From Bacilli bacterium (GTDB taxonomy: Bacteria; Bacillota_I; Bacilli_A; RF39; UBA660), in contig JAVVTI010000001.1 in assembly GCA_036653735.1 (NCBI GenBank), positions 8,881-72,880 of the forward strand: a DNA stretch of 64,000 nucleotides. The letters are read 5' to 3'. Position numbers and translations under genes: made by a program. Below are positions 15,846-54,828 of this stretch, piece by piece. Numbering within the stretch: position 1 is the stretch's first letter; every line of letters begins with the position of its first letter. The notes below the pieces were generated by a model, which was not told the DNA's origin, did not search any database, and saw only the letters and a list, made by a program, of their open reading frames with translations.

Positions 15846-16194
15846 AACAATAAATTCATTAAAACTAGAAATTGAAGGACAAAAACCTATGGTTGCTTTT
15901 GTAAATATGGTAGTTAATGCATCTAATGCAATTGATATGGGTGAAATGGCTAAATTATGTGCTAAAGATGGAATTAAAATTGGAAGAAATAGATTATTTG
16001 AAATTTTAAGAGAAAAGGGGGTATTAATGAGTAATAATATTCCGTATCAAAGACAAATTGATAATGGCATATTTAAAGTTGTTGAAACAATAAAAAGCAA
16101 TTTTTATGGTGACCAAGTATTTTGTAAAACATTAGTAACTGGAAAAGGACAAATTAAAATTGTTGAGTTGTTACGTAAAGAATTTGACAAATAA
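15835..16194 (+). CDS. KilA-C (phage antirepressor C-terminal) domain protein
   Basis: IGRNRLFEILREKGVLM ... IPYQRQIDNGIFKVVET ... TLVTGKGQ is KilAC-like. Start overlaps the upstream ORF by 11 nt in the +1 frame, next to an A6 run. Confidence 0.6.
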   Translation: MADKTINSLKLEIEGQKPMVAFVNMVVNASNAIDMGEMAKLCAKDGIKIGRNRLFEILREKGVLMSNNIPYQRQIDNGIFKVVETIKSNFYGDQVFCKTLVTGKGQIKIVELLRKEFDK

Positions 16195-16418
16195 TTTTTT
16201 GTGTGATATAATTAAGTCATACTTAGAAAGGAGGTATATAAGGTGAAAGATGAACTATACAGTTGGAATAAATATGATAGACAATTTAAGTCTATTGGTG
16301 ATAGATTAAATTATGAAAAGTATGACGAAAGAGATTCTGAATATGATTATAATGATTGTGAAGAAACAGAAGAAGATTATTAAAATTTATTCAATATTAT
16401 GTGTAAGGGGGTGAATAA

Positions 16419-19133
16419 TTGGGTAAATATGGACTAGAGATAAAGAATATTAAAGCTGGAACTTTATATGGATATAATAATGGTGTTAGAACGAGATATG
16501 AAAGTAACCGAGCAATGTTTAATAATAGCTTGTTTAATAATTATATTTGTAAAAATGGATTGAGTGTATATAAAGATAAATCAACTAGGGATATTATTTG
16601 TTTAGATTTTGATTTCGGCTCATTCTCTTACGAAGAAGAAAAAGATAGATTAGAAGAAAAATTAAATTATGCTGATGATGAATCTAAACAACGTATTATA
16701 GATTTATTAGAAAAGATTGATATAAACAAAGATAAATATATTAAAAAGTCAAAAGAAGAAATTCGAGATGATTATTACGAAAATGGTGTGACAATAAGAT
16801 ATCAACAAAAAGACAAATTGGAAAATATTGTAAAAGAAGATGATATTGATTATAAAATGTTATATCGTAGTCCTGCTAAGGCAAAATTAGGGCAAGCAAT
16901 TTTTATTAATAAAAAATTATATAATAAGGCTTATAATTGGCTTACTATGGGATTAGGAAATAAAATGCCAAAGGATAATGCAAAAATTGTGGAAATGTCG
17001 GCATATGCACCTTTAACAACTAGTACCATTGTTGATACAATTCATATTCCGATTGAAGATATTGTAATATTAAAAGACCAAGAATCAATATTCAAAACTT
17101 TAGCGAATGTTGTAAAAGCTGAAATTGTAAATGGTAATAAAAAATGTGTTGTGGCGAAAGAAGAAACAAGTGTTGTAAATACAATGTGGGACGGAATGGC
17201 TTTGATTGAAGAATCTTATATTCCAAAAAATATTGAAATGAATGGAATGCTTTTAGTTCGTAATCATTTTTTTAAGTCATGTGGAGTTAAGTCTAAAATA
17301 CAATTATTCTTAAGAGATTGGTGTCGCAATAATAACATTGATTTTGATACATTTGAAATTGAGGATATGTTCGGAATTAAACATAAGGCAAAAGATATTA
17401 AAATGGTTACCACGGATAATTCAATTAAGTGGAAAAAGTTTTCTAATTTAATGGGAAATAATGATTTAGAAGCATATCAGTATTGGTGTAATAAAATTAA
17501 CGAGGACGGAAGTATTTTTGGAATTGTTAAAACAGACCATTCAAGTAAAATGGGGAATAGTCAACAAATGAGTTATCAGATGGTTAATACTTTGCCTTGC
17601 ACATTTGAAGAAGTCGGTGATATTGCCAAACAAAGTATTGATTATGTGGAATTAATTAAATCAGATGATGATGAATTTGAAAAGTTTCTTAGAGATAATA
17701 AAAACGAAATCAACCACTATGAAATGTTAGCAGATTTATATAAGCAAAATAAATTATTTGCAAAATGTGAATGGTTCAGAGTTGAAAAAAAGAAAATAAT
17801 TTTTGCTTACGTGGAAAGGTTAAGAAAAGGGAAAATATTTGTAAGAGGGGATAATTTAACAATTTTTGGGAATCCATATGGTTTGTTATTACATTGTGTC
17901 GGGGAAAATTATGAAAATGATAAAACTTTACAACAAGAAAATGATTGTATACAGTGTTATACTAAACAGTTTAAAGATGGTGAATATTTAAGTGCATTTA
18001 GAAATCCACATAATTCCCCTAATAATATTGCCTATTTACATAATGTTTATTCTGATGAAATGGAAAAATATTTTTCTTTCAGTGATAATATTATAGCTGT
18101 AAATTGTATCCATACGGATATACAAGATAGGGCAAACTCAATGGATTTTGATAGTGATTTTATGTTTGTTACGAACCAAAAAACAACAGTAAAATGTGCA
18201 AAGGAGTGCTATAAAGATTATCCAACTATTGTAAATGCTTTAAAAGAAAGTGGTGTGACTTATCATAATACTAAAAAATCTTATTCAGATATGGATAATA
18301 AATTTTCAAATTCTAGGATAGGAATAGGAGTTTCAAGTAATCAGGCACAATTGGCATTAACTTATTATTGGACTGAATTAAGCAAACAAAACCCAAATAA
18401 AGAAATTTTGAAAGAGTTAAACGATAATTTTGTAATTTTGTCAGTTTTAGCACAAGTGATTATTGATGGGTGTAAAAGAGAATATGAAATTGATGCATTA
18501 AAAGAAATTGAAAGAATACAAAATATGAGATGTATGCAGATTAAAAAAACTACAAAATTAAAATGCGGAAAATCAAAAACGATAAATTATAATTTACCAA
18601 ACTTTATGAAATACACGAAAGAAATTAAATATACAAAAAATGGAAAAGATATCGAGATAGAAAAAATTCAATCTGATAAAAAGAGGATAACCGATAGAAT
18701 AAATCCTAGTTTAATATGTCCTATGAATTATTTAGAAAAACATTTGGATTCAATTAAGCAGATGGATAAAACAGATTGTTTAGAAACGAAAGATTTTTTT
18801 ATTAAAATGAGTGGTGATGGGAATAGGAGACAAATATCAAATATAGTGCGTTTAATAAATGAATATGATAGTGCTACAAAACACCTTATTATTTCCGATA
18901 AAATGATTGAAGGAGAAATAGTCGGGAAAACGGAAGAATTAATTAACGAGGTTTCTAAAATAAAAATAGGGAATATTATTACTATTAATAGATTAATTGA
19001 AACCGCTTTAAATTTAGAATTAAAAAATAATAGTGGCAAAAATAACTCAAAGTATTGCCGAAAATTATTGAACATTTTATACCGAACAAACAAAGAAAAG
19101 TTCTTAATTTGTTTTAAAATAGGCGAAAATTGA
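16419..19133 (+). CDS. Large (904 aa) protein of unknown function with DxD (ICLDFDFGS) and DFDSD motifs
   Basis: Long uninterrupted ORF with an RBS. No family recognised with confidence. Confidence 0.6.
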   Translation: MGKYGLEIKNIKAGTLYGYNNGVRTRYESNRAMFNNSLFNNYICKNGLSVYKDKSTRDIICLDFDFGSFSYEEEKDRLEEKLNYADDESKQRIIDLLEKIDINKDKYIKKSKEEIRDDYYENGVTIRYQQKDKLENIVKEDDIDYKMLYRSPAKAKLGQAIFINKKLYNKAYNWLTMGLGNKMPKDNAKIVEMSAYAPLTTSTIVDTIHIPIEDIVILKDQESIFKTLANVVKAEIVNGNKKCVVAKEETSVVNTMWDGMALIEESYIPKNIEMNGMLLVRNHFFKSCGVKSKIQLFLRDWCRNNNIDFDTFEIEDMFGIKHKAKDIKMVTTDNSIKWKKFSNLMGNNDLEAYQYWCNKINEDGSIFGIVKTDHSSKMGNSQQMSYQMVNTLPCTFEEVGDIAKQSIDYVELIKSDDDEFEKFLRDNKNEINHYEMLADLYKQNKLFAKCEWFRVEKKKIIFAYVERLRKGKIFVRGDNLTIFGNPYGLLLHCVGENYENDKTLQQENDCIQCYTKQFKDGEYLSAFRNPHNSPNNIAYLHNVYSDEMEKYFSFSDNIIAVNCIHTDIQDRANSMDFDSDFMFVTNQKTTVKCAKECYKDYPTIVNALKESGVTYHNTKKSYSDMDNKFSNSRIGIGVSSNQAQLALTYYWTELSKQNPNKEILKELNDNFVILSVLAQVIIDGCKREYEIDALKEIERIQNMRCMQIKKTTKLKCGKSKTINYNLPNFMKYTKEIKYTKNGKDIEIEKIQSDKKRITDRINPSLICPMNYLEKHLDSIKQMDKTDCLETKDFFIKMSGDGNRRQISNIVRLINEYDSATKHLIISDKMIEGEIVGKTEELINEVSKIKIGNIITINRLIETALNLELKNNSGKNNSKYCRKLLNILYRTNKEKFLICFKIGEN

Positions 19134-19364
19134 CCAAAAACTGCACGGTAACTCAACCTCAAAAACCCTGTAACCCTTGCTACTACTAGGTTTGCGAGCA
19201 AAAAGTATCGTCCCTAATAAGGGAGAGAAAGCAAAAATTTTGTTAGTATCACCATTCGCTATTGCCGATGCGATAAATAAATAAGGAATTGCAATCAAGA
19301 TAGCCCGACCATAGGCTTTGTATGTGGTCTATATATAAATAATAAAATGAAAGGAATGATATAA

Positions 19365-19766
19365 TTGGCAAGACCAAGTTATGATAGAAGAAATAGAAAG
19401 CAAACACAAGAGTTGATTGGTGAAAGAGATTTATATCGTGCGATTAAACAACATAAAGAAGTCGCAGACTATAATCTTACCATGGAACAAATTAGAGGTG
19501 TTTTTAGAGCATATGCCGACATTGTACATAGAGGTTTAATTAATAGTATTAGAATTACTTTACCATATATGGGAGAATTTTTCAAAGCAAAGCAAGAAGG
19601 ATTTAAAGGTGGTATGATAAAAATTCCAGATAAAGGAATGGAGTTTAAAAAAGGGTGTACATTTCATGAAGAATATTTTCCACCAACACCAGATTATGGC
19701 ATTATGAGATTTGAAGTAAGAAAATCTTTACAAGAAAAATTTAAAGAGGAAACGGTATTTAAATAA
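19365..19766 (+). CDS. HU / IHF-like DNA-binding domain protein (TTG start)
   Basis: LTMEQIRGVFRAYADIVHRGLINSIRITLPYMGEF resembles the HU-fold helix-arm region. Confidence 0.35.
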   Translation: MARPSYDRRNRKQTQELIGERDLYRAIKQHKEVADYNLTMEQIRGVFRAYADIVHRGLINSIRITLPYMGEFFKAKQEGFKGGMIKIPDKGMEFKKGCTFHEEYFPPTPDYGIMRFEVRKSLQEKFKEETVFK

Positions 19767-20455
19767 TGGGAAAAGCAATGTCTGATAAAGATTTTAATGA
19801 TATTATTGCTATTAAATGTGGAATATCTTCTATTACAGTAAAAAGAGTATGGAATAATATAAAAAAATTAATTGTATCAGAGTTACAAAATAACTCGTAC
19901 ATAAGAATAGAAAATTTTGGAAAATTTGAACTTATTAAAAAAGGAGGGAAAGATGAATGGTTTGAAAATCAGATGGGAATACAAGAACAGCGCTATGTTG
20001 AGCCATTTGATTTTGTAGAGTTTAGTCCAAGTGCAAATTTTATAAACTCTGTAAATAATGGACTTGTTGATTCATGGTCTAAATATAGATTTGAAAATGA
20101 TGAATTAACTACTTATGATAAAATTTTATTAGATATAGAAACAGACCTCACTGTAGATGAAGTATTATTTGATTTATTAAATAAGAAAAAAAAAAGACAA
20201 ATAAAAGAAGCTACTAGGAATAAACTTTATCAACAAGGGCAAAATTTAGGAAAAACAGAATTGACAAAAGGTAAACCGATTAGATGTGTTACGAATGGAG
20301 TTGAATATAAATCTGTTTATAGTGCATCTCAAGCTTTAAATATTAGAGCGATTAAAATGTATCAAAATTTTAATAAAGGTATTTTTTTAATAGATGGGTA
20401 TGAGTTTGAATTTATCAATGAAATAGAGGAGAAAAATAGTAATGACGAATTGTGA
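19766..20455 (+). CDS. HU-like N-terminal domain protein with a C-terminal extension
   Basis: DIIAIKCGISSITVKRVWNNIKKLIVSELQNNSYIRIENFGKFEL is HU-like. Translationally coupled to the previous gene. Confidence 0.35.
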   Translation: MGKAMSDKDFNDIIAIKCGISSITVKRVWNNIKKLIVSELQNNSYIRIENFGKFELIKKGGKDEWFENQMGIQEQRYVEPFDFVEFSPSANFINSVNNGLVDSWSKYRFENDELTTYDKILLDIETDLTVDEVLFDLLNKKKKRQIKEATRNKLYQQGQNLGKTELTKGKPIRCVTNGVEYKSVYSASQALNIRAIKMYQNFNKGIFLIDGYEFEFINEIEEKNSNDEL

Positions 20456-23367: not shown

Positions 23368-24312
23368 GTGATATTTATCGAAGAACAAAAAATAACTAAA
23401 GAAGGAGTTAGGATAAAAAAAGAGAGAGTTTCTCATTGTATTGATTGTATGAGAGATTATCCCATAAGTAATTTTTATCCATCAAAAGGTTTTTTTTTAG
23501 GAAATGCAAAAGTAATACCTTATTGTAAAAGTTGTTGTGAACAAATATTGAGAGAAAATTTAAAACGTTGTGGTACTTTAGAATCTGCATTATGGATAAC
23601 TTGTTCTAAATTAGATGTGCCCTTTATAAAACGCGTCTTTGAATCAACTGTTAAATATAAAAATAATTATCAAGAAACAAGTGGAAAAGATGATTCAGAC
23701 TATAATATTTTTGGTTATTACTATATGTTTTTATGGGGAACTAAAAGTATGCAAAAGAAAGGGGAAGAATGGAATGATTTTAAAGCTACTGATGTTGCCA
23801 TGGGAGAAATACAAGTTTTAAAAAAAAGTGAAGATGCTTTAAAATTAGAAATGGAAAAGTTTTCTCTTGATTGGGGTCATCGAGCAGATATTGAAGATTA
23901 TCAATATTTAGAATATGAATTTGATAGATTGACAAAAGATAAACCATTAAAACCACAAGAAGAAACATTATATAGAAAACTTTGTATTATTGAATTAGTA
24001 ATGCGTAAAAAAGAGGAAACAAATGAATCTACCAATGTAGAGCAATCTCAAATGTTAAATTTAATGAAAACTTTAAAAATAGATAATTTTTCAGAAGATA
24101 AGGACTTGTCTTTAGTAGAGAGAATGTTAGAAAATCAAATAGCAATTATTGAAAAAGAAAAACCATGTTTTCATTATAAAGATTTAAAAAAAAATGCTGA
24201 TTTTGTAGGAAGAGGGAGATATTGGGAAGACCACGTTATTAGACCTCTAAGAAATTTATTATGTAATACTAAAGAATATAAAATAAAAAGAGATAACCAA
24301 GAGGAAATATGA
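23368..24312 (+). CDS. Zn-finger protein immediately upstream of terL; putative terminase small subunit by position
   Basis: N-terminal CIDC ... CKSCC Zn ribbon. 314 aa. Translationally coupled to the large terminase. Confidence 0.3.
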   Translation: MIFIEEQKITKEGVRIKKERVSHCIDCMRDYPISNFYPSKGFFLGNAKVIPYCKSCCEQILRENLKRCGTLESALWITCSKLDVPFIKRVFESTVKYKNNYQETSGKDDSDYNIFGYYYMFLWGTKSMQKKGEEWNDFKATDVAMGEIQVLKKSEDALKLEMEKFSLDWGHRADIEDYQYLEYEFDRLTKDKPLKPQEETLYRKLCIIELVMRKKEETNESTNVEQSQMLNLMKTLKIDNFSEDKDLSLVERMLENQIAIIEKEKPCFHYKDLKKNADFVGRGRYWEDHVIRPLRNLLCNTKEYKIKRDNQEEI

Positions 24313-24313
24313 T

Positions 24314-26173
24314 ATGGTTACTTTAAAAGAATTAATTGAAGCTAGACGAAAAAAAGAAAATAAACGTAAAAAACCCTTAACGAAAGAACAACATGAAGAA
24401 CAAATCATTGATTGGTGTGATTTTTATAGGAAAAACTGGGATATTTATGCAGAACAAGATTTAGGAATAACAGCTCTTCACCCATTTCAAAGTATTGTAT
24501 TATATTTAGCTGGAATATCACAAGTGTTTTATTTTATGTGTAGCAGAGGAATGTCAAAATCGTTCCTATCTGCTTTAATTTCTTTTATTATATGTTTATT
24601 ATATCCAAATTCAGAAATAGTAATAACAGCAACAACCATGAAAACAGCAAAAAAAATGGTTAAAAATAAAATGCAAAAAGAATTATGTGGAGATTATTCA
24701 CCTAAATTAAAATATCTATATGAACATGATTTAATACATTTTACGATAGGTGATGAAGATATAAGAGTTGATTTTAAAATGAATAATTCATGGATATTAG
24801 TTTTACCGGAAACAGATAGTTCAAGAGGTGAACGTGTAACTGGTCTTATATTTGAAGAATATCGACAATCAAAACCAAGTATTGTAAATTCAGTGTTTAT
24901 CCCAATGAGAAGAGCGAGAAGAGCCGCATATCTATTTAAAGAAGAATTTAAAGAAGATAAAAGACTAATTGAAAATGCGCGGATTATTTATCTTACATCA
25001 ACAGGTTATAAATTTGAACATTTTTGGGAAACTTGGAAAACAGTAATAGATAAAATGTTTGACAAAAATAGTAAAACAAAATATATTGGATTTGCGGGTG
25101 ACATTGTTACATCAGTGTATCATAATCTAGTCACAGAAGAGGACTTTGAATTAGTAAAGAATGACCAATCCATTTCTGAAATGGAAATAGAAATGGAATA
25201 TTATAATGTTCCACAAGGCGAAATAGAAGGTTCTTATTATTCTATGAAACAGTTTAAAGACAATAGTGTTATAGAAAATGGATTTATTCCCCCTACGTAT
25301 GAAGAATTTGTAGAAAAATATGACAGAGGAAATATTCCGTATTTTAGGGAAAAAAAAGATGATGAAATAAGAATTATTTATGTTGATTTTGCATTTTCAG
25401 ATACTGTAATAAAGAATCAAGATAATGATAATACTGTAATTGGTTGTATGAGTGGATATCCAAACGAAGAAAGAGTAAGAATATTAAGAAATGTGGACTA
25501 TATGGAAACATACAGTGGAGGAGATAAAGAGAAGTCTTTAAAGAGGATTAGAGAATTATTCTATCTTTATTGTGCTGATTATTTTATTTATGATAACTTA
25601 AACGGAGGGCAGGATAGATTTGTTGATTTATCTAAGCCATATTATCATGAAGAACTAGGTATTGAAATGAATGGATTTGGTATAAGTACTGAAACTAATA
25701 TTACAGATGGTTTCTGTGAAGAAAATAAAGTTGCTAATTTATCAAATGGAGTGATAGATTCTAATTCAATACCAGTGTCAATTCCAGTTGTAGGGAGTTC
25801 AGAGCGAAATAATAATTATCATATTGTCATGAAAAATTCATTGAAAAATAATACAATTCGATTTCTTATGGACGAAATAGAATTAAAGAAAAAATTATTA
25901 AATGATAAAGAATTTATGTTTATGGATAGTTATTCAAAATCTAGGAGATTAATTGGACATGTTCAAATAGACTTAATGATTAATGAAGCCATAAAATTAG
26001 AAAAAAAAATAGTTAAGGGTTATATTAAATTAGAAGAACCTAGGACTGGAACAAAAGATAGAATAGTTGCCACTGAATATGGTAATTATTTTTTCTATTT
26101 AAAAGAGTTAGAAATGGTAAAAAAAGAACAAGAAAATACAACGGATTTAGAAGATATACAATTAGTATATTAA
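24314..26173 (+). CDS. terL: Terminase large subunit
   Basis: 619 aa. N-terminal ATPase with a Walker-A-like CSRGMSKSF. C-terminal nuclease-like region (IYVDFAFSDT). Position is before the portal. Confidence 0.7.
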   Translation: MVTLKELIEARRKKENKRKKPLTKEQHEEQIIDWCDFYRKNWDIYAEQDLGITALHPFQSIVLYLAGISQVFYFMCSRGMSKSFLSALISFIICLLYPNSEIVITATTMKTAKKMVKNKMQKELCGDYSPKLKYLYEHDLIHFTIGDEDIRVDFKMNNSWILVLPETDSSRGERVTGLIFEEYRQSKPSIVNSVFIPMRRARRAAYLFKEEFKEDKRLIENARIIYLTSTGYKFEHFWETWKTVIDKMFDKNSKTKYIGFAGDIVTSVYHNLVTEEDFELVKNDQSISEMEIEMEYYNVPQGEIEGSYYSMKQFKDNSVIENGFIPPTYEEFVEKYDRGNIPYFREKKDDEIRIIYVDFAFSDTVIKNQDNDNTVIGCMSGYPNEERVRILRNVDYMETYSGGDKEKSLKRIRELFYLYCADYFIYDNLNGGQDRFVDLSKPYYHEELGIEMNGFGISTETNITDGFCEENKVANLSNGVIDSNSIPVSIPVVGSSERNNNYHIVMKNSLKNNTIRFLMDEIELKKKLLNDKEFMFMDSYSKSRRLIGHVQIDLMINEAIKLEKKIVKGYIKLEEPRTGTKDRIVATEYGNYFFYLKELEMVKKEQENTTDLEDIQLVY

Positions 26174-26196
26174 AAAATGAGAAAGGAGGAAAAATT

Positions 26197-27822
26197 TTGG
26201 AAGAAAAAGAAATAAATAAAATGTCAGAGCAAGAAGTTATTGATGTGGTATCAATGGCAAATAATATATATTCAAATTATACAAATGGTAATTTTTTTGG
26301 CTTATTTACTCCAGATTTATTAAACCAAAATTTGAACTCTTTAAATAATAATCCATCTATTCCAACTAAAATAACTTTGAATAATGCCCTAAAGAATTAT
26401 AAGTATCAAGCAAATGAACTAAAAGCATTTTCTGAATATGCGGAAGTTTATGATTCTTTGTTCGGTAAAATATTAAATTATTATGCAAATTTACTTTCTT
26501 TTGATTTACATATCACTTGCAAAAATGCTTATCTAGGTGAATTAGATTATCAAAGTGAAGAATTTAAAAAAGATAAAAAAATAGTATATAAATTTTTAGA
26601 TAATTTTAATGATAAAGATGAATTTTTAAAAGTAGTAAAGGAATTAATTAGGAGTGAAATTTATTATACATGGTTTAGAGATTCACAAGGAACATTTGAA
26701 AATACTGGTAATATTGAAATTGAATCCATTAAAAAACTATCTTCATACACTCTCCAAATTATGCCACAAGATAGATGTAAAGTAACAGGAATGTGGGAAA
26801 ATGGGTTATTATATGATTTTGATATGACATATTTTTTAATGGCTGGTGTTGATATAAATTCTTATGACCCATGTTTTAAAAAATATTTTGCAAATACTTT
26901 TGGCGATAATGTAACACCAAAATACAATCCGACTTCTAGCTTGAACAATAGAAATGGTACGTATGCTATGTGGACACAAACAAGTCCTGATGATTCTGCA
27001 TGGGCATTTAAGTTTGATATGTCAAATATGAATGCTGCCCCTTTTCTTTCTAGTATGATTAAACAAGTTTTATCAACTGATGAAGTTGCAAAATTACAAA
27101 TTGATTCAAATATGTTATCTGCTAGAGGTATTTTAGCTGGTCAAATTCCAATGTTGGATAAACAAAAAAGCGGACAAACAAAAAATGCTATGGCATGGGA
27201 AACAAAAACTTTGGAAAAATTCATGCGATTAGTAAAAATGGGATTAACAAATAATTTAAACGCTGTTGCAATGCCAACAGAAACAAATGATTTTTATCAA
27301 TTTGAAAACAAGAATCCTGATATGCTTGGCAAACAAATGAAGATTTTTAGTGGAAATGGTGTAAGCGCTAGTAGATTGATTTATAGTGAAGATAAAATGA
27401 GTGAAGCAGAAATTCAAAATGCAATTGTAACAGATTATAATTTAATGAAACGATTATATCCTCAATTTGAAAAGTTTTTAGGATTTTTTATTAATAAAAA
27501 AACTAGAAAATATAAATTTGATTTTCATTATGACGGTTGTACTTATCCATTCATGAGAGAAAAAGCAAATAAAGCCTTGTTTGATTTAGCTGATAGAGGT
27601 ATGGTATTAGATTCTAGTATATATTCAAAATGTGTTGATATGAAACCACAAGAATTTGATAGAGCATTAGAAGAAGGTAAATATAGTAAATGGACTGAAA
27701 ACTTATTATCTCAACTTTTAAGTATTCACACACAAAGTGGAAAAGAAGAAACTGTTGGTGCACCTAAGAAAGAGAGCAGTGATTTAAAAGAGAGTGGTAG
27801 TGTTGCTAGGGAATATGATTAA
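26197..27822 (+). CDS. Putative portal protein
   Basis: 541 aa, immediately after terL. Size and position typical of a portal. Confidence 0.45.
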   Translation: MEEKEINKMSEQEVIDVVSMANNIYSNYTNGNFFGLFTPDLLNQNLNSLNNNPSIPTKITLNNALKNYKYQANELKAFSEYAEVYDSLFGKILNYYANLLSFDLHITCKNAYLGELDYQSEEFKKDKKIVYKFLDNFNDKDEFLKVVKELIRSEIYYTWFRDSQGTFENTGNIEIESIKKLSSYTLQIMPQDRCKVTGMWENGLLYDFDMTYFLMAGVDINSYDPCFKKYFANTFGDNVTPKYNPTSSLNNRNGTYAMWTQTSPDDSAWAFKFDMSNMNAAPFLSSMIKQVLSTDEVAKLQIDSNMLSARGILAGQIPMLDKQKSGQTKNAMAWETKTLEKFMRLVKMGLTNNLNAVAMPTETNDFYQFENKNPDMLGKQMKIFSGNGVSASRLIYSEDKMSEAEIQNAIVTDYNLMKRLYPQFEKFLGFFINKKTRKYKFDFHYDGCTYPFMREKANKALFDLADRGMVLDSSIYSKCVDMKPQEFDRALEEGKYSKWTENLLSQLLSIHTQSGKEETVGAPKKESSDLKESGSVAREYD

Positions 27823-27848
27823 ATTATAGAGAGGGAGTGATTTATTAA

Positions 27849-28370
27849 ATGTTAATTAGTAACGAAACAAGCGAAGCATTAGACATTTTGTATAACCAAT
27901 ACTTCAACTTAAATTCATTATGTGATAATGCTGTTAGTTTTATGTTAAATAAATGGGCAATGGTGCAAGCAAATGATGTTATTCATCATAAATTATGTCA
28001 TTGGTATCCGTTGGGCGCTGATGAAATTTCTGAAATCAAAGATAATTATGATTTGAAGTCAATTCGTTCAGAACTACCAAAACATTCAGAAGAATATACT
28101 GATTTAAGGGAATTATTCGATAGAATTTACATTGAACATGAAAGAACTTATGAAATGATTAAAATGGTAAACAAAATAGCAATAGATAATAATGACTTAA
28201 ATGTACAGTATGCATTAGTTAAAGTGGTAAAGCATTTTAATATTATTATCGGGCAAATAATTACTCTTATGAATAAAGCATATCAAATGCCAACCGATTT
28301 TGATACATTTGATAGGCATATTTCAAGTTGGGGTATTATCGGTTTAGACAATTGCAAGGAGTGTGATTAA
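27849..28370 (+). CDS. Hypothetical head-morphogenesis-region protein
   Basis: 173 aa. Confidence 0.45.
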   Translation: MLISNETSEALDILYNQYFNLNSLCDNAVSFMLNKWAMVQANDVIHHKLCHWYPLGADEISEIKDNYDLKSIRSELPKHSEEYTDLRELFDRIYIEHERTYEMIKMVNKIAIDNNDLNVQYALVKVVKHFNIIIGQIITLMNKAYQMPTDFDTFDRHISSWGIIGLDNCKECD

Positions 28371-28541
28371 ATGGTAATTCGGGCAACTCCTAAAGATACC
28401 TCAAATTATGTAATAGCTGATTCTGAATTAGCTGATATACTACAACGAAATGGATTCCACCCAAAATACATGGATATGGAATATTTGTACTTTGTGAGAA
28501 CAATAGAAATTGAAAAATTCATGATGGGTGGTGAAAAATAA
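28371..28541 (+). CDS. Hypothetical small protein (56 aa, not in the ORF track)
   Basis: ATG overlaps the upstream stop (TAAATGG). Ends at TAA 28539-28541, just before the TTG start of the next gene. Confidence 0.3.
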   Translation: MVIRATPKDTSNYVIADSELADILQRNGFHPKYMDMEYLYFVRTIEIEKFMMGGEK

Positions 28542-30065
28542 TTGAAAGATGTTAAAAAATTTAGTATTGATATAATTAATGATATTCCTGACAACGAAGA
28601 TTTAGAATTTTCCATCGTTCGTATCAATGGTTTGTCTTGTGGTTATAATTCTCATGAGATGGAAATTTCAGAAGAGATTTTAAGAAGAGATGCTCAAAGT
28701 GTTTTAGGAAAGCCAATTGTTGTTAAATTAGAAAAAAACTGGATTGGGAAATTAGATGCTACTGACCATAATAAAGGTGAAATTGTTGTCGGATATGTTC
28801 CAAAAGATGCTGAAATTAGATTTGTAGAAAGTGATAACGGAATATTTTGGCAAGTTGATGGAGTAATATTCAAACTTTATAGCAATGGAATGATTGATGT
28901 ATTTCGTAGAGATGGGAAAAAATATGTGTCGGCTGAATTTACATGTACCTATGAAGATGAAGAAGAATCTATTATAAAATCCTATAATATTTGTGGCATA
29001 ACGATTTTAGGAAGTGGAATAAATCCATCTTGTATTGGTGCTGATGCTGAAATAATTAAATTTTCTGAAAAAAAAGCAGAAGAGTTCTATCATAAAAATA
29101 GCTCTATTATTGAATTGAGAAAGTTTGCCGAAATTTCAAAAGAGGGTAAAACATACAAAGTCAATAAAACAGAATTAAAAACAACTCCATGGAGTGAAAT
29201 TGATAAAACAAAATTAAGAAATACAATTATGAAAGCTAAGAATAAAGCAAAATTAGTAAAAGATGTATATGCATTAGTTGAGGAAGATTGGGAAGATAAA
29301 CCTAGCAAATCTTTAAAATATCCAATAATGCAATTAATTGACGATACTTTTTATTATAACGAAAATGGACTAAGTTCTGCTCTAGGTTATGCTAAGGCTG
29401 AAAATGAAACAGAAGTTATAAGTAAAGTTGAAAAAATATATAAAAGTTTGAACATAAATAGTGAGGAGGAAAGCAATAAAATGGTAGAAAACAAAGATTC
29501 AAAAATCAAAGAAGATAAGAATGAAACTCCAAAAGAAGAGATTGCTGAAAAAGATAAGCTCAAAAACGAAAAATTATCAGACGATGATGATGATGAAACT
29601 GGTGATAATGATGAGGAAGAACCCGAAGATGAAAAGAAAGAAAAATTATCGTCTGATGCAAATGTAGATTCAAGTGCTTATGCCGAAATGTTAGAGATTG
29701 AAGCAAAAAAGAACGAAGTATTAGCAAAACAGCTTGAAGATAAAGACAATGTGATTATGAAATATGAAACAGAATTGTCTAGTTTAAGAAAGTTTAAAGA
29801 CGATACCGAGGAAGAATTAAAAATGGCAGAAGTTACTAGTATGTTGTCAAAGGCAAAAGGTAAAATGGAAGAATCTGAATATGCTAAATGTGAAAAAGAG
29901 GGAAAAGAATGTAAATTTTCTAAGATTGATGCATGGAAGAATATGGTTTTTGCAAAAATTGGACAGACAACTCTAAAATTCAGTTCAAATGAATCAAAAG
30001 AAACTCATATGAGAATGAACTTATTCCAAGATGAATCAAAAGATAATGAAAGTCTTTGGAATTAA
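28542..30065 (+). CDS. Putative prohead protease - scaffold fusion: S78 / HK97-like N-domain, acidic coiled-coil C-domain
   Basis: N-terminal DATDHNKGEIVVGY ... ITILGSGINPS resembles prohead protease motifs. C-terminal 200 aa is strongly acidic and coiled-coil (DDDDDETGDNDEEEPEDE). Confidence 0.4.
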   Translation: MKDVKKFSIDIINDIPDNEDLEFSIVRINGLSCGYNSHEMEISEEILRRDAQSVLGKPIVVKLEKNWIGKLDATDHNKGEIVVGYVPKDAEIRFVESDNGIFWQVDGVIFKLYSNGMIDVFRRDGKKYVSAEFTCTYEDEEESIIKSYNICGITILGSGINPSCIGADAEIIKFSEKKAEEFYHKNSSIIELRKFAEISKEGKTYKVNKTELKTTPWSEIDKTKLRNTIMKAKNKAKLVKDVYALVEEDWEDKPSKSLKYPIMQLIDDTFYYNENGLSSALGYAKAENETEVISKVEKIYKSLNINSEEESNKMVENKDSKIKEDKNETPKEEIAEKDKLKNEKLSDDDDDETGDNDEEEPEDEKKEKLSSDANVDSSAYAEMLEIEAKKNEVLAKQLEDKDNVIMKYETELSSLRKFKDDTEEELKMAEVTSMLSKAKGKMEESEYAKCEKEGKECKFSKIDAWKNMVFAKIGQTTLKFSSNESKETHMRMNLFQDESKDNESLWN

Positions 30066-30099
30066 TAATAATAAAAAATAAAAGGAGATGTAAAAAATT

Positions 30100-30639
30100 A
30101 TGGCAAATACAGTAATGATTACAACAAGATGCGCAAATGAAAATGTAGATTCTTACAATAGAAAGGCAAAATCAGTAACTGATGTAATGAACGGAGCACC
30201 ATTAACACTAACTTTCCCAAAAATCAGAGGAGATGAGGTTTTTACTGCAACCACTGCCGCCGCTGGTGCTAAAAACGTGTACTTAGCTTATTCACCAGAA
30301 GTGAATAAATTAGTAGTTGGACAAGTATGGGGTGGGGAAGACCCAAGAAATTTCACAAATTTGAAAGAAATTCCGTTTGATTGCTTTAAGCCACAAGTAG
30401 GAGATATTATTCAAGTAAGCAAAGAGTTCTTTATTAGTGCTAAAGACCCTGATACCGTAACAAATTCTACAGTTGTTGAGTTAGTTTCGGGAGGATTTGA
30501 AAGCAAAGTATCTGCTACGGCTAGTTATGGTGGTATTAGCTTTAATATTGGAAGAAAAGAACCAATTGTAATTGCAAGTAAAAATGTTCTTACAAATGAA
30601 CAAAATGACGCTTATTTACTTGAATGTACTCAAAACTAA
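30100..30639 (+). CDS. Hypothetical head protein (decoration?)
   Basis: 179 aa between the protease-scaffold and the capsid gene. Confidence 0.35.
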   Translation: MANTVMITTRCANENVDSYNRKAKSVTDVMNGAPLTLTFPKIRGDEVFTATTAAAGAKNVYLAYSPEVNKLVVGQVWGGEDPRNFTNLKEIPFDCFKPQVGDIIQVSKEFFISAKDPDTVTNSTVVELVSGGFESKVSATASYGGISFNIGRKEPIVIASKNVLTNEQNDAYLLECTQN

Positions 30640-30660
30640 TTAGAAAAGGAGAGAATAAAA

Positions 30661-31755
30661 ATGATAAAATTACCTATGAACGTAATTAATTTTTCGGGTG
30701 GGGAGACAAAACCATACGAACAAATGAAAGATTACTTTTTTCACTATATGAGTGAAGTTGCTAATAAAAATTTAGGAACTTATGAAAAGGGAGTATCTCT
30801 TTCTACCAAAGAGGACAATATGAATACTGTTTTATTGTCTGAAATTAACAGAATTTCTGGACAAACTATGCCAGAGGGAGTATCTTTTGAAGCATGGTCT
30901 AAAAATCCAATGATTGTATGGGCATCTTTTCAGACCGTAGGAATGATGATTGACGCAATTTTGCCAGAAACAATTATTCGGTCTATTGGAATTTATACTG
31001 ATTTAAAACCAGTAGATTATGGCGAAACCGCTACATTTGATATTATGCCGAACTCTTTATTTACAGTTTCAAAATCCTCTAATGCACAGAGAACTGCATT
31101 TAGACAGAAACAATTTAAGACTTCTGCAACTCTTACACCAGAAAATCATGCTATGACGGTTATGGTTTCTTTGTATAAAGTATTGAGTAAAAAGGAATCT
31201 TTAGCTGAATTTGTAAGAAAAGCCGTAATCAGTATGGAAACAGAAATGACAAAAGATGCTTATGGTGCTTTGACCACTCTTGTTTCAAACGCATCTTTCC
31301 CTAAAGAACTACAGAAAACTGGATATACACAAGATGCTTTATTGAATCTTTGCGAAATCACAACTTCGTATAATCAAGGTCAAAAAGCAACTATTGTTGG
31401 AACAACAACTGCTGTAAGTAAGGTTCTACCGTCTGCAGCAAATGGCTATAGAATTGTTACTCAATCTGAAAATATGGGCATTCAGCTAATCAAGAATTTC
31501 TTTGATTATGATATCCTTGTATTACCACAGGTTGCAACAGGTATTAATTATGGTCTAGCACTTGATGATACTAAACTTTATACTATTTCTACCTCTACGG
31601 ATAAAATTATTAAGGGCGCATTAGAGGGCAATTCTATTACAAATACTAATGATTTCTATGATAATGCTGATTTAACATCTAACGCAACAATTAACAAGAG
31701 ATGGAAATTTGAAGCAATTAGTAACTCTAAAATGGGTGTCATGAAATTACAGTAA
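30661..31755 (+). CDS. Putative major capsid protein
   Basis: 364 aa, strong RBS, followed by a stable stem-loop. Position after protease-scaffold. Confidence 0.5.
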   Translation: MIKLPMNVINFSGGETKPYEQMKDYFFHYMSEVANKNLGTYEKGVSLSTKEDNMNTVLLSEINRISGQTMPEGVSFEAWSKNPMIVWASFQTVGMMIDAILPETIIRSIGIYTDLKPVDYGETATFDIMPNSLFTVSKSSNAQRTAFRQKQFKTSATLTPENHAMTVMVSLYKVLSKKESLAEFVRKAVISMETEMTKDAYGALTTLVSNASFPKELQKTGYTQDALLNLCEITTSYNQGQKATIVGTTTAVSKVLPSAANGYRIVTQSENMGIQLIKNFFDYDILVLPQVATGINYGLALDDTKLYTISTSTDKIIKGALEGNSITNTNDFYDNADLTSNATINKRWKFEAISNSKMGVMKLQ

Positions 31756-31765
31756 GTTACTTTTT

Positions 31766-31792
31766 CAGGGGAATCTAAAAAGGTTTCCCCTG
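31766..31792 (+). terminator. Stem-loop, CAGGGGAA - 11 nt - TTCCCCTG, after the capsid gene (no clear U-tract)
   Basis: 8-bp GC-rich stem read directly. Could be a terminator or RNA-stability element. Confidence 0.4.
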
Positions 31793-31825
31793 ATTACATA
31801 AATTGAAAGGAATCTAAAATAAAAA

Positions 31826-32464
31826 ATGGAAGAAACAGTAAAAACAGTAAAAACAAAGAAAACCGTACCAAAAGAAAAAGAAGTTGCAAAAACAGATGAC
31901 CTCAATAGTGATAAGATTAAAAAATTGGAAAAGCAACTTGCCGATTTGATGACACAACTCTCTCAACCAAATGTTGAACCATCAAAAATTGAAAAGCATA
32001 ATTCAGACGATGAAATTACTATTATTAGTCAGTGTTTAGGAGAGTTGAATTTAATTTTTGGTGATATTAAATCTCCTAATAACGACCACATTACATTGGA
32101 AAATTTTGGTGATATGGAGGTTATTTCTTTCGCTGAATTAAAAGATATTGTAAAATATAATAAGTCTTTTGTAGAAAAAGGATATTTTTATATTGTAGAT
32201 GAATTGGCAGTAAAACAGTTAAGGCTTGAAAGATATTATAATAGATTGTTGAGTGTAGAAGATATGTCAAATTTATTTAACAATGACGCAAAATCAACTA
32301 TTGAACTTTATAAATTAGCAAATGATGGACAAAAAGAAATTATTATTGACCTTATTTCAAATAGGATTTTAAACAAAGAAAAACTAGACGCAAATGTATT
32401 GGTTGAATTAGGGAAATTAAGTGGAAAAGACTTAATGAAAATGATTGAAGATTATTCAGAATAA
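31826..32464 (+). CDS. Hypothetical structural protein
   Basis: 212 aa with a Lys-rich N-terminus. Confidence 0.4.
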   Translation: MEETVKTVKTKKTVPKEKEVAKTDDLNSDKIKKLEKQLADLMTQLSQPNVEPSKIEKHNSDDEITIISQCLGELNLIFGDIKSPNNDHITLENFGDMEVISFAELKDIVKYNKSFVEKGYFYIVDELAVKQLRLERYYNRLLSVEDMSNLFNNDAKSTIELYKLANDGQKEIIIDLISNRILNKEKLDANVLVELGKLSGKDLMKMIEDYSE

Positions 32465-32530
32465 TACTTAAAGGGTTTAGTTCAAAATTCTCGTGTCTTT
32501 AGTTATACGAGGTTAATAGGAGGGGAAATA

Positions 32531-33004
32531 GTGGGAACTGATTTTGAAGAAATATATAATCTTGCTTTAATTACAATTCGTGATTATAAGATTGATAAGT
32601 GGGCGACTACGGATTATAACATATTTTTAAATCATATGCAAGGAATTTTAATTCGTTCAATCCCAAGATTTACAGGATGTTTGAAAAGTTTGAACTATAA
32701 ATTAGATGTTGTGGTAGTTATAGAGGGCATTCCCACTATTAAATCTTTTTTTGACAATGAACTAACAAATTTAGAAAAATCAATTTTGGCTGATTCAATG
32801 GTCAATACGTGGTTTTTTGCTGATATCAATGATATTACAGAAATAAATTTAAGTTTACAAGGCAGGGATAAAAAAACTCATAGTGAAAGTTCAAATTTAA
32901 AAGAAAAATCAGAATATTATGATAGATTGAATGAAAGACTTTCACAGAGTATCAATGATTACCAATTAGAGGGGGATAATTTTGATGTTATCTTTGGCAT
33001 CTAA
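32531..33004 (+). CDS. Hypothetical structural protein (head-tail connector region)
   Basis: 157 aa. Confidence 0.4.
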   Translation: MGTDFEEIYNLALITIRDYKIDKWATTDYNIFLNHMQGILIRSIPRFTGCLKSLNYKLDVVVVIEGIPTIKSFFDNELTNLEKSILADSMVNTWFFADINDITEINLSLQGRDKKTHSESSNLKEKSEYYDRLNERLSQSINDYQLEGDNFDVIFGI

Positions 33005-33021
33005 TTATTTTTGGTGAATAT

Positions 33022-34269
33022 ATGAATTGGTATAAAAATTACTTAGGACATTTTGCTCAAACTCCTGATGAAAAATATCGTGATGGAACACAAGCTTTTA
33101 TTGATTCTACTTGGGAAGATACTACGCTGATAAAAAATATAGAGGAAGAAACTTTTATAGGTTCTAATATGTATGTATCATTGCAAGTTCTTAAAAACAG
33201 TATTAGTGAATTTTTTGTAAATACTACAAAAGATGCAAAAGATTTTAGGAGAATTATGTTTAAAGAAGTTTATCATAAAAGTGGTAGAGGAATAAAATAT
33301 AGATTTGATAATAATTATTGGTTAGTTTATGAAGAAACCACTGAGGAAGAGCCTTATCCTGAAATCAGTGTGAGGAGATGTAACAATATTGCAAAATGGA
33401 TTGATAAAAAAAATGGGAATATTATTGAAGAACCTTGTATTTTAGATTATACTTTATCAAGTCCCAATGTTCAAGTCACAAAAGATGTAAGTGTAGCTAA
33501 TTCTAAAGTCACATTGATATTACAGGGAAATGAAAATACACATAAGTTAAGGAAAAATCAGAGATTTATTTTTAATGGTGTACCGTATTCTTTTAAATCA
33601 TACAATAATTATATGCAAAATGATTATGTAACAAAAAATGTTCCTTTATTATTTTTAGATTGTTATTTAGACACAGAACAACCTAGTGATGATTTAATAG
33701 ACAATATTGCAAATCGGTTTGATTACAAATATTCTATTTTAATCAATCAAGGAAATATTGAACAAATAACCGGATTTAAAGGAAAACTAACAAGCACTGT
33801 ATTATTTAATGGAGAAATTGTTAAGGAGATAGGTATTAAATGGTCTACAAGTGATTCTAAGACAGTTAGTATAGATAGTCAGGGGAATTATCACCTATTA
33901 GGTTTAAGTGGTTCTATAGCTGTATTAAGAGCCTATATAGACGGCAATGAAAATGTATTCAGTGAAATAACAGTAAACATAATTGAAACGGTAATTGCCG
34001 ATAAAATTTTAATTATCACTCCTAAAATTACAGAATTATTACAGTATGAAACGATTACAATTAATGGTGATATATATAGTAATGGAATAAAAGAACCCGA
34101 TATTGTTACTTGTACCGCAAATTGGGAAAATAATAATTACACTCTAACTCTTATTGATAAAAATGAATGGGATTTAACTAATAACAATATGACAAAATTG
34201 CCACTAGAACTAACTTTTACCAATGGTGTATTGATTGAAAAAATGACAATTAAATTAAAATCAGCATAA
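33022..34269 (+). CDS. Structural protein with a bacterial Ig-like (Big_2-like) domain
   Basis: SIDSQGNYHLLGLSGSIAVLRAYIDGNENVFSEITVNIIE is Ig-like. Confidence 0.4.
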   Translation: MNWYKNYLGHFAQTPDEKYRDGTQAFIDSTWEDTTLIKNIEEETFIGSNMYVSLQVLKNSISEFFVNTTKDAKDFRRIMFKEVYHKSGRGIKYRFDNNYWLVYEETTEEEPYPEISVRRCNNIAKWIDKKNGNIIEEPCILDYTLSSPNVQVTKDVSVANSKVTLILQGNENTHKLRKNQRFIFNGVPYSFKSYNNYMQNDYVTKNVPLLFLDCYLDTEQPSDDLIDNIANRFDYKYSILINQGNIEQITGFKGKLTSTVLFNGEIVKEIGIKWSTSDSKTVSIDSQGNYHLLGLSGSIAVLRAYIDGNENVFSEITVNIIETVIADKILIITPKITELLQYETITINGDIYSNGIKEPDIVTCTANWENNNYTLTLIDKNEWDLTNNNMTKLPLELTFTNGVLIEKMTIKLKSA

Positions 34270-34278
34270 GGAGATTAT

Positions 34279-34860
34279 ATGGGAAGAATGATAGCAAATG
34301 ATTTTACAAATACACCATATGTTCCTTATAATATTTTTATTTATTTATTAGAAAACAATGAAAACATATGGAAAATATTAAAATATAATACAGTAGACTG
34401 TTTGTCTAAGCCTAATTTAACAAAACGAGAAAAATCAAAATTGTTATGGAGAGGAGAAGCACAAGAAACAGATTATAAAGTATTTTTAAAACCTTTAGTT
34501 GGTGATGAAATGATTGCAGATACAACACAAATGAGAATAAATAAAGTAGAAATGAATCCTACTAATTTATATTTATCAATTAATACTTACGAGTTTATGT
34601 TTTTAATTGGCAAAAGTATTGCGATGATAGAATATAATGATATCCCTTGTCCTCGTATTGATGTATTAGAAACAGAAATATTAAAAACATTAAACGGTGT
34701 TTATGAAATTGGAACAGCTGGTACATTTCAATTTAATAATGAAATGTCAAGGAATTGTCGAGCAAGATTAAATATTAATAATGGCAAGAATTACTTTGGC
34801 GGAGTTTTATATTTAAGTGGTAAATGGGGAAATTTGAATTGGAGAGAAGAATGTGGATAA
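34279..34860 (+). CDS. Hypothetical structural protein
   Basis: 193 aa. Confidence 0.4.
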   Translation: MGRMIANDFTNTPYVPYNIFIYLLENNENIWKILKYNTVDCLSKPNLTKREKSKLLWRGEAQETDYKVFLKPLVGDEMIADTTQMRINKVEMNPTNLYLSINTYEFMFLIGKSIAMIEYNDIPCPRIDVLETEILKTLNGVYEIGTAGTFQFNNEMSRNCRARLNINNGKNYFGGVLYLSGKWGNLNWREECG

Positions 34861-35632: not shown

Positions 35633-35707
35633 CATATAAAAGTGTAAAAATTTAAGCAGAAACAGAACAAAAATAACCGTAAATAACAAAAAATGGAGGA
35701 ATAAAAT

Positions 35708-36769: not shown

Positions 36770-36782
36770 TATAGCGTTTTAA

Positions 36783-36812
36783 AAAATGGGAGTTTAATTC
36801 TCCCATTTTTTT
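36783..36812 (+). terminator. Rho-independent terminator, AAAATGGGAG-tttaatt-CTCCCATTTTTTT
   Basis: 10-bp stem plus a T-run. Confidence 0.7.
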
Positions 36813-36825
36813 ACATACTAAAATT

Positions 36826-49713: not shown

Positions 49714-49746
49714 AAAAATAAAATATTCTTAAGAAAGGAGGATTTT

Positions 49747-54824: not shown

Positions 54825-54828
54825 TATT

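Follow-up and report, generated by a model that had tools for sequence, protein, structure and literature searches.

The polymerase gene and its surroundings

The window, i.e. the whole stretch of 64,000 nucleotides that was analysed, is part of a 92.9-kb contig and carries, at 16419..19133 of the forward strand, an open reading frame (ORF) encoding a 904-aa protein. It has a TTG start, with a GGGGGTG ribosome-binding site read in the sequence directly 5' of it. The ORF listing bears out the original prediction of a gene here, as does the identical protein (P0001, 100% identity) called on public contigs. The description of this gene as the head of a rightward operon is roughly right: three ORFs precede it, and the RNAP unit has a promoter of its own. 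Following a strand switch near 15.4 kb, these are two Ant-like ORFs (15486-16194) and an acidic 46-aa ORF (16243..16383, +), the latter being a gene call on an identical public contig (L089, 9825-9965, offset 6418). This 46-aa ORF, for which no homology was detected, adjoins the 904-aa gene upstream, the slot occupied by yonP in SPbeta. A consensus scan placed a sigma-A/sigma-70-type promoter, with TTGACA and TG-TATAAT at a distance of 17 nt and 12/12 matches, at 16184..16212 (+), 5' of both the 46-aa ORF and the 904-aa gene. Judging by its consensus sequence, it is likely to be the promoter from which the host RNA polymerase (RNAP) expresses the phage protein.

On the same strand, two adjacent genes for putative DNA-binding proteins of 133 aa and 229 aa (19365..20455, +) stand in the position of SPbeta yonN. 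The 229-aa protein (19766-20455) has an HU/IHF-family N-terminal domain (PF00216, 31.3 bits), and both proteins are weakly similar to YonN and to the HU-like pair of phage PMBT24. In 74 of the 80 related loci the RNAP gene has an HU-like ORF 3' of it on the same strand; none of the loci has one on the 5' side. The co-directional late cluster (23368..55722, +) comprises yonG-like, yonF-like large terminase, portal, yonD-like, virion, tape measure, tail fibre and endolysin genes. The order RNAP, HU-like, YonJ_N, YonG-like, TerL, portal and YonD-like is that of SPbeta, where an HU-like gene likewise comes directly after yonO, ahead of late genes of the yonJ, yonG, terminase, portal and yonD types. 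One candidate for a YonK equivalent, orf60, was rejected as not significant (E 0.04), and repeat finding within the window gave nothing useful as a repeated late-promoter motif. The DnaE and helicase that the phage had been said to encode are both present on the reverse strand, as a DnaE-like polymerase (61161-63953, -) and a RecD-like helicase (57090-59324, -). Exact look-ups of these two proteins, aimed at a primase outside the window, returned no record.

Homology, fold and active-site residues

Searched alone, the 904-aa protein has no match in Pfam, NCBIfam or PDB by sequence; in Pfam nothing appears at E<=10, leaving it below the gathering threshold of PF05183. YonO too falls short of that threshold, while TR-TP1 gp3 (69 bits) and P0500 (37.6 bits) lie above it. 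The subfamily is listed in PHROGs as of 'unknown function', and the sole match of its profile against the PDB, an isopropylmalate isomerase, was judged spurious. Direct BLAST against YonO gives an E of only 0.04, with identity of about 17-20%, but a transitive BLAST chain links the two at 4e-18 and 6e-24, and hhalign aligns them (96.3%, E 2e-9) with the aspartate triad in register. The Pfam and PDB check proposed at the outset found nothing with the single sequence, whereas profile-profile comparison and the predicted fold reached the YonO/two-barrel family. The profile homology spans about 480-580 residues (aa 160-735 of the window protein against 156-660 of YonO). Neither the first ~143 nor the last ~170 residues align with YonO, and the first 143 do not align with the other subfamilies either.

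The suggestion that this is a YonO-like RNAP, in which DFDSD plays the part of the NADFDGD-like catalytic motif, is supported by the BLAST chain, profile-profile alignment, fold and synteny, together with eight catalytic residues. The motif itself (18144..18158, +; D576, D578 and D580, the metal-binding triad) falls on D535/D537/D539 of YonO and on the DxDGD motif in QDE-1 and RDR2 when the sequences are aligned. As strings alone, such motifs are within chance, because DxDxD arises in 25% of shuffles of the protein and DxD occurs 7 times against 4.4 expected. It is the conservation of D576, D578 and D580, invariant across 120 homologues of ~60% identity, that exceeds chance. In the window subfamily the triad loop is DxDSD, with Ser (98%) or Ala (2%) in place of the near-universal Gly.

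In QDE-1, the universally invariant residues of two-barrel polymerases are D709, R738, K743, R962, P964, D1007, D1009 and D1011 (PMC2919709). All eight are present in the 904-aa protein, as D258, R281, K286, R528, P530, D576, D578 and D580, and are invariant in an alignment of 72 sequences from three subfamilies. The beta-like barrel (DPBB-B) residues D258, which is followed by G259, R281 and K286 (17190..17276, +) correspond to YonO D249, R266 and K271, and are equated with QDE-1 D709, R738 and K743 by order, spacing and alignment to YonO. The beta-prime-like barrel (DPBB-A) has R528-N-P530, then H531 (18000..18008, +); R528 and P530 correspond to R492/P494 in YonO, R962/P964 in QDE-1 and R446/P448 in Rpb1, and a profile search aligns the residues of this barrel to RDR2 and QDE-1. 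The R-x4-K and R-x-P spacings match the QDE-1 active-site set.

The predicted structure, with a pLDDT of 86, can be superposed on QDE-1, RDR2, P74-26 gp62, P23-45 gp96 and crAss gp66, the best solved matches being the RNA-dependent enzymes QDE-1 and RDR2, and its two DPBB domains are predicted to form one active site. In the model a long helix of 36 residues, aa 619-654 (18273..18380, +), directly follows the catalytic barrel and contains the invariant I636, G637, S640 and N641. The next helix, aa 661-683, ends at the invariant D683, with K686 just past its end. The IGxxSN and IDxxKT motifs of this region align to RDR2, and the region around helix 619-654 is probably a bridge-helix-like element.

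Comparison with known enzymes shows where the window protein stands within the family. YonO, likewise a single chain of ~100 kDa, shares all eight active-site residues and their order. It differs in its triad (DNDGD against DFDSD), in its unrelated N- and C-terminal regions, in its host (Bacillus, rather than a low-GC gut 'Bacilli' MAG) and in a C-terminal CxxC...CxxC, which the YonO clade keeps without exception and the window subfamily lacks. DxDGD and CxxC...CxxC are clade traits and do not define the family. The closest annotated relative is the PF05183-positive TR-TP1 gp3/PMBT24 family from Thomasclavelia and Enterocloster phages (BLAST 4e-18; hhalign 98.2%; identity ~22-23%), which has the canonical DFDGD and reaches the Pfam threshold, unlike the window protein. 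In PMBT24 the gene occupies the same position at the head of a rightward cluster, in the order RNAP, two HU-like genes, yonG-like, TerL and portal, and the replication genes of these phages are similar (pol III alpha, ExoV-like helicase, anaerobic RNR and Gam). QDE-1 and RDR2 (PDB 2J7N, 7Y7P and 7W82) share ~10-12% identity with the window protein and have an unrelated genomic context. They are eukaryotic enzymes acting on RNA in silencing, QDE-1 also acting on ssDNA. No sequence-level homology was detected to P23-45 gp64/P74-26 gp62 (non-virion), P23-45 gp96 (a virion RNAP fused to the tape measure) or crAss-like phi14:2 gp66. The RNAPs of these unrelated phages are virion-packaged, early or middle enzymes, whereas that of the window shows no fusion to a virion protein. 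The T7-like single-subunit RNAPs have an unrelated right-hand, Pol I-like fold, and no similarity to the window protein was found. The analogy with them is functional only: the host transcribes the RNAP gene, and the units for the phage enzyme come next.

A structured element downstream of the polymerase gene

A conserved structured non-coding element lies 3' of the polymerase gene at 19209..19298 (+). It consists of a 5' box GTCCCTAATAAGGGAG, three helices supported by covariation, TAAATAAGG and a palindrome ATTGCAAT (19288-19295), which varies in sequence but stays symmetric. With the window sequence left out of its construction, a covariance model matches the window element with 55.6 bits (E 1.3e-9); of 84 related loci, 79 have one match each, on the same strand. 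Helix 1 is poorly kept in the window copy. Folded as a single sequence, the window element is unremarkable (z = -1.6); the support for its structure comes only from comparison between sequences. The 5' box is unique within the 64 kb. The element matches no Rfam family: with 4227 covariance models only chance-level matches were obtained at E<=10 in window positions 19100-19420 and in positions 12779-13300 of related locus L011, and a gathering-threshold scan of the window found only a tRNA. The covariance model has no match in the 25-kb stretch of SPbeta holding yonO, and in the TR-TP1/PMBT24 family the element was not found.

Immediately after the element, at 19302..19329 (+), the sequence can be read as a GC hairpin resembling the variable-sequence hairpins of relatives. 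With AGCC (19302-05) pairing to GGCT (19314-17) and GACCA (19308-12) to TGGTC (19325-29), an H-type pseudoknot is also possible. Under strict criteria, a candidate intrinsic terminator separates the RNAP stop codon from the element in only 7 of 28 distinct loci. A short peptide encoded by the element was rejected, as neither the reading frame nor the stops are conserved between relatives (L011 against L009). A sigma-A promoter in the box (TTGCGA-17-TAATAA) is possible but a poor fit, because the 5' arm of helix 1, which covaries, would then lie ahead of the RNA start.

A tentative proposal, which we think has some chance of being correct but is not the likelier outcome, is that the element (19209-19298, with the hairpin to 19329) is a cognate control region of the polymerase. 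It might act as a single late promoter with a 5' leader, in which case the box junction TAATAA-GGGAG would abut the start of helix 1, or alternatively as a processive-antitermination RNA of the put type, standing where the 36-kb late cluster begins. The HU-like protein, with its gene consistently downstream, might be an architectural cofactor, and the palindrome would then be either a site of RNA self-dimerisation or a symmetric site to which protein binds. Where YonO starts transcription was a question not settled in the 2017 paper (PMC5467207), and a literature search found no later answer to the start-site or promoter question. The linked covarying element and the near-universal HU-like gene offer testable candidates for start-site finding; if the proposal is true, a promoter or leader would for the first time be defined in sequence for an RNAP of the YonO type.

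Template, target genes and alternative roles

To our knowledge, no bacterial or phage member of the YonO type other than YonO has been characterised biochemically. YonO is the single-chain DNA-dependent RNAP of SPbeta, strongly prefers DNA templates, and has as its dependent genes 37 late genes (Forrest et al. 2017; PMC5467207). Homology, the retention of every catalytic residue, the fold of the model and a shared gene order place the window protein in the same two-barrel family. The type of template, the target genes and the start of transcription are inferred. We consider it likely that the gene, probably transcribed by the host, encodes a YonO-family RNAP, which most likely uses DNA and transcribes the late genes downstream. 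The host RNAP would transcribe the polymerase gene from the promoter at 16184-16212, after which the polymerase would transcribe the co-directional packaging, virion and lysis genes, as YonO does in SPbeta. The late cluster is presumed to be its template because of the analogy with YonO (PMC5467207). In the active site, D576/D578/D580 and D258 would hold the two Mg2+ ions, and R281, K286 and R528 would make contacts to the NTP being added and to the 3' end of the RNA, with P530 positioning R528.

The late-gene assignment is by analogy only. One alternative is a different job for the same two-barrel enzyme, namely the priming of phage DNA replication, or transcription of no more than a short downstream unit, for instance the structured element, tRNAs or ROOL RNA, instead of the whole late cluster. 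RNA genes are often found directly downstream in relatives: ROOL RNA follows the RNAP gene in 11 of 80 loci, although none was detected in the window, and a tRNA follows the element directly in loci L006, L010 and L072. No primase is seen within the 64 kb, but the window covers only part of the contig, and PMBT24 encodes a separate DNA primase and DnaB-like helicase (PMC11035940). Given also that a position ahead of packaging and structural genes is conserved in SPbeta, PMBT24 and the window, and that the genes dependent on YonO are late genes, such a role seems unlikely. Still less probable is an RNA-dependent RNA polymerase, for which phage or host RNA, and not DNA, would be the template to be copied or amplified. 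The top solved structural matches are cellular enzymes of this kind, relatives of the window protein match PF05183, and several in GenBank are named 'RNA dependent RNA polymerase'; these names, however, derive from automated PF05183 or QDE-1 matches without experiments behind them. The template preference of YonO and the SPbeta-like synteny of a gene that opens the late cluster of a dsDNA phage argue against this reading.

An archaeo-eukaryotic primase (AEP)-polymerase or nucleotidyltransferase, with the DFD of aa 63-65 as its catalytic site, can be regarded as effectively refuted by conservation, chance frequency and fold. It was suggested by ICLDFDFGS (aa 60-68; 16596..16622, +), a motif within the N-terminal part (aa 1 to ~143) that is specific to the subfamily, and the presence of a DxD string is all that speaks for it. 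Of the same 120 close homologues, 82% retain D63 and 54% retain D65, DxD occurs at chance frequency, and the motif lies outside the part that aligns to YonO or TR-TP1 gp3. In the related phage PMBT24 the DNA primase is a separate protein. No AEP match was found by sequence in Pfam, PHROGs or the PDB, no AEP or PrimPol fold is among the fold matches listed, and the QDE-1-like fold accounts for the whole chain.

The YonO-family RNAP encoded in the window is an enzyme of a known kind, from a divergent, large and abundant gut-phage branch that has no name in the standard annotation libraries and no Pfam or NCBIfam match. The branch counts 1211 clusters at 50% identity and is present on at least 275 viral contigs; its members are often mislabelled 'RNA-dependent RNA polymerase'; assignment to the YonO family corrects the template that this name implies. 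With Ser in place of Gly in their metal loop, these proteins offer a natural variant for structure-function work on YonO-type enzymes, which are minimal single-chain relatives of the cellular RNA polymerases.

Relationship of the window protein to YonO

The open reading frame at 16419..19133 on the forward strand starts with TTG behind a GGGGGTG ribosome-binding site and encodes 904 amino acids, exactly as originally described; public records of a 'Bacilli bacterium' MAG and of other assemblies contain an identical protein. Searched as a single sequence, the protein has no match in Pfam, NCBIfam or the PDB, and PHROG 8308 ('unknown function') is its only match in these family searches. Of 8000 candidates scored in a 90%-identity cluster database, 1821 proteins are relatives at E <= 0.001; at the 50% identity level, 1211 clusters match with E <= 1e-3, and 605 of these reach E <= 1e-30. 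One family member is named 'RNA dependent RNA polymerase [Caudoviricetes]', and in isolated phages the relatives are genes labelled 'RNA-dependent RNA polymerase', carried by Thomasclavelia phages TR-TP1/2 and by Enterocloster phage PMBT24.

By BLAST, TR-TP1 gp3 matches the window protein across aa 78-592 (E 4e-18), its DFDGD lying opposite DFDSD, and YonO, the single-chain RNA polymerase (RNAP) of Bacillus subtilis prophage SPbeta, matches gp3 (E 6e-24) with DNDGD opposite DFDGD. The direct match between YonO and the window protein is weak (E 0.04), but the register is unchanged, and a transitive chain from the window protein through gp3 to YonO is clear from these alignments. Profile-profile comparison confirms that the window subfamily is related to both the gp3 family (98.2%, E 3e-14, 517 columns) and the YonO family (96.3%, E 2e-9, 482 columns). 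PF05183 is matched above threshold by all listed gp3-family members and by P0500, a relative 32% identical to the window protein, while YonO itself falls below the threshold; hence the Pfam miss of the window protein reflects divergence, not non-membership.

Active site and predicted fold

The original prediction drew on two motifs, ICLDFDFGS (aa 60-68) and DFDSD (aa 576-580), to propose either a primase-polymerase or a YonO-like RNAP. As a DxDxD string turns up in 25% of shuffled versions of the window protein, and the DxD count is 7 against 4.4 expected, the motif strings alone carry little weight. D576, D578 and D580 never vary among 120 close homologues, while in the N-terminal 'DFD' D63 is kept in 82% and D65 in 54%. 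The invariant columns of a 72-sequence alignment spanning the window, gp3 and YonO subfamilies include D258, G259, R281, K286, R528, P530, H531, D576, D578 and D580, the YonO counterparts of the catalytic residues being D249, R266, K271, R492, P494, D535, D537 and D539. The mapped invariant residues of the window subfamily are the eight universal two-barrel residues, which are D709, R738, K743, R962, P964, D1007, D1009 and D1011 in QDE-1, and D837, K979 and K987 of Rpb2 together with R446, P448 and the three DFDGD-motif aspartates of Rpb1 (Ruprich-Robert and Thuriaux, PMC2919709); the R-x4-K and R-x-P spacings also agree. Experiment has shown the YonO aspartate triad to be needed for catalysis (PMC5467207). 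Against the PDB, the joint profile retrieves maize RDR2 (E 3e-9), with RxPH, DxDGD, IGxxSN and IDxxKT all in register, and QDE-1 more weakly. The fourth position of DxDGD, a near-universal Gly elsewhere, is Ser in 98% and Ala in 2% of the window subfamily.

An AlphaFold2 model built on the 72-sequence alignment has a mean pLDDT of 86 and a pTM of 0.84. The structure prediction and fold search that had been proposed as a check gave a QDE-1/RDR2-type fold: the best 20 Foldseek matches in the PDB are all QDE-1 or RDR2 (E down to 3e-13, about 880 alignment columns), followed by weak Rpb1-type matches, and the top BFVD match is a phage protein named 'RNA dependent RNA polymerase' (E 3e-47, TM 0.76). 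From the model and alignments, a subfamily-specific N-terminal region (aa 1 to about 143) precedes a beta-like barrel (about 200-292), a helical connector (about 300-470), a beta-prime-like barrel (473-606) and two long helices (619-683) that in the model probably form a bridge-helix-like element; the C-terminal domain (about 690-904) does not align with YonO and is without its CxxC...CxxC. The YonO-like proposal is backed by homology, catalytic residues, predicted fold and synteny. The primase-polymerase alternative is rejected, given the poor conservation of D63 and D65, the chance-level DxD count and the absence of any AEP or PrimPol fold among the matches listed for the model. PMBT24, with a very similar replication gene set, has a separate primase (PMC11035940).

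Gene order around the polymerase gene

The placement of the RNAP gene at the head of a rightward operon holds only in part. A split Ant-like antirepressor, with separate AntA and KilAC frames (15486-16194), and a 46-aa frame (16243-16383) precede it, so it is not the first gene, but it does have its own perfect promoter, TTGACA-17-TGnTATAAT, at 16184-16212 (+). This is one of three perfect (12/12) sigma-70-type promoters with TG extension, the others being at 14250-14278 (-) and 15415-15443 (+), within the divergent control region that surrounds the strand switch. A perfect 26-nt inverted repeat (14449-14474 / 14498-14523, 23-nt spacer), which could be an operator, origin or terminator, also lies in the AT-rich intergenic DNA between the divergent arms. 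A 112-nt direct repeat of 79% identity links the left arm (3552-3663) with the sequence just before the rightward cluster (15269-15380), and a second Ant-like gene, inside the structural cluster (39551-40252), shares its 5' end sequence with the split one (repeat D4). The DnaE-like polymerase and RecD-like helicase reported originally were both recovered, on the flanking minus-strand arm.

Downstream of the RNAP gene are two DNA-binding-protein genes (19365-20455), the second with PF00216 (HU family), then a 60-aa frame and, within 20628-22140, a 44-aa YonJ_N fragment (E 8e-5 to SPbeta YonJ) that ends 170 nt ahead of an IS605-type (IS200/IS605) TnpB gene (20931-22022). The remainder of the yonJ-like exonuclease gene is missing from 20628-22140, which suggests disruption by insertion of the TnpB element. 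A tRNA-Gln (anticodon TTG, 22393-22464) separates this element from the packaging genes; two small frames, a YonG-like gene, the large terminase (E 4e-50 to YonF), portal and YonD-like genes follow, and then virion genes, tape measure, fibres and endolysin (54829-55722). Between the tail genes and the endolysin, two convergent small frames contain a 33-nt inverted repeat (53605-53637 / 54139-54171, 97% complementary, arms 501 nt apart) that could reflect duplication of a gene in inverted orientation, or a segment able to invert.

The same order is found in SPbeta (yonO-yonN-...-yonJ-...-yonG-yonF-yonE-yonD) and in PMBT24 (RNAP, two HU-like genes, hypothetical, TerL, portal), and the HU-like genes of SPbeta (yonN), PMBT24 and TR-TP1 are arranged as in the window. 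Among 80 IMG/VR loci with RNAPs 54-61% identical, 74 resemble the window in having an HU-like frame on the same strand, 0.3-9.7 kb downstream, and none has one upstream, although many loci are interrelated and the count overstates independence. The RNAP-HU linkage is family-wide, and suggests that the two proteins are functional partners.

A conserved element 3' of the polymerase gene

When k-mers of the intergenic DNA that follows the RNAP gene were surveyed in 37 dereplicated loci, motifs common to 25-28 loci emerged (at most 6 in shuffles), and all the top motifs except the tRNA-like GGTTCAAATCC belong to one element about 60-230 nt past the RNAP stop. RNAalifold predicts two hairpins, in which 8 of 10 pairs show compensatory changes. 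A three-helix structure is 96.1% paired over 13 diverse sequences, against 80.8% in shuffles and 28-57% in slid controls, with double-sided changes in 10/14 pairs, a level reached by 0/500 shuffles. A covariance model built with the window sequence left out has exactly one match per locus, on the RNAP strand just after the gene, in 79/84 loci. Nothing else in 1.88 Mb matches the model, and the SPbeta, PMBT24 and TR-TP1 loci lack a match. Across 34 distinct rows of the model-fitted alignment, which carries a bias towards the structure in the model, 13 of 14 pairs covary. The element matches no family in Rfam 15, and its + strand G-U pairs speak for a structure formed by RNA, or by the + strand.

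In the window, the match is to 19209-19298 (+; 55.6 bits, E 1.3e-9), outside the RNAP gene, with a hairpin extending to 19329, within 19134-19365; helix 1 is poorly preserved in this copy and its single-sequence fold is unremarkable (z = -1.6). From 5' to 3' the element consists of a conserved box GTCCGTWATATGGAG (GTCCCTAATAAGGGAG in the window, unique in the 64 kb); helix 2 enclosed by helix 1; helix 3 with a conserved YATTGCCRAT loop; TAAATAAGG; a perfect palindrome; and a GC hairpin with possible pseudoknot pairing. The palindrome varies by phage with its symmetry kept (ATTGCAAT in the window; CTTGCAAG, ATCCGGAT, ATTCATGAAT, TTCGCGAA, AGATATATCT, AATTCGAATT and CAGAAATTTCTG in relatives), the longest averaging 8.4 nt against 4.6 +/- 0.4 in shuffles.

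The element is followed by the HU-like frame in the window and elsewhere by a tRNA or ROOL RNA (RF03087). The latter occurs in 11/80 related viral loci, 249-517 nt downstream of the RNAP gene and just after the element where that is present (L011, 13294-13894, 291 bits; also L019, L020, L021, L050, L060-L063, L065 and L070), and none was detected within the window. Other RNAs near the RNAP gene in relatives are a Pistol ribozyme (L054, 4808-4881, -) and RAGATH-18 RNAs (L006 and L010, 16909-16981, +). In SPbeta, an Rfam DUF3800-VIII motif (L003, 9409-9474, -, 47.5 bits) lies between yonN and yonK, in the 1.7-kb gap reported as the start of the YonO-dependent late transcript with an 'unannotated non-coding RNA'.

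The 37 late genes of SPbeta form a single operon transcribed by YonO, an RNAP that depends strictly on DNA; the YonO paper (PMC5467207) left the promoter undefined. The best-supported model for the window has two steps, in which host RNAP would express the RNAP gene from its consensus promoter and the phage enzyme would then transcribe the co-directional late cluster; its template type, regulon and start site we infer. The element is a candidate for the cognate single late promoter and leader, for a put-like antitermination RNA, or for a 3'-UTR or terminator belonging to the RNAP message; in only 7/28 distinct loci was a terminator found upstream of it.

The window protein departs from the family only in the Gly of the triad and the C-terminal Zn-ribbon-like cysteines, both clade-specific, and in the Pfam threshold, which YonO also misses; it agrees in sequence, active site, fold and context, and is predicted on this basis to work like YonO. 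Hence it is a member of the known YonO-type RNAPs, in a large divergent branch. Its relatives are probably misnamed as 'RNA-dependent'; the paper on the PMBT24 genome makes no mention of YonO, and its gene list includes no phage RNA polymerase by name (PMC11035940). Less expected are the linkage to an HU-like gene and the RNA-like element next to the RNAP gene, which form the basis for reading this region as a possible cognate control region.
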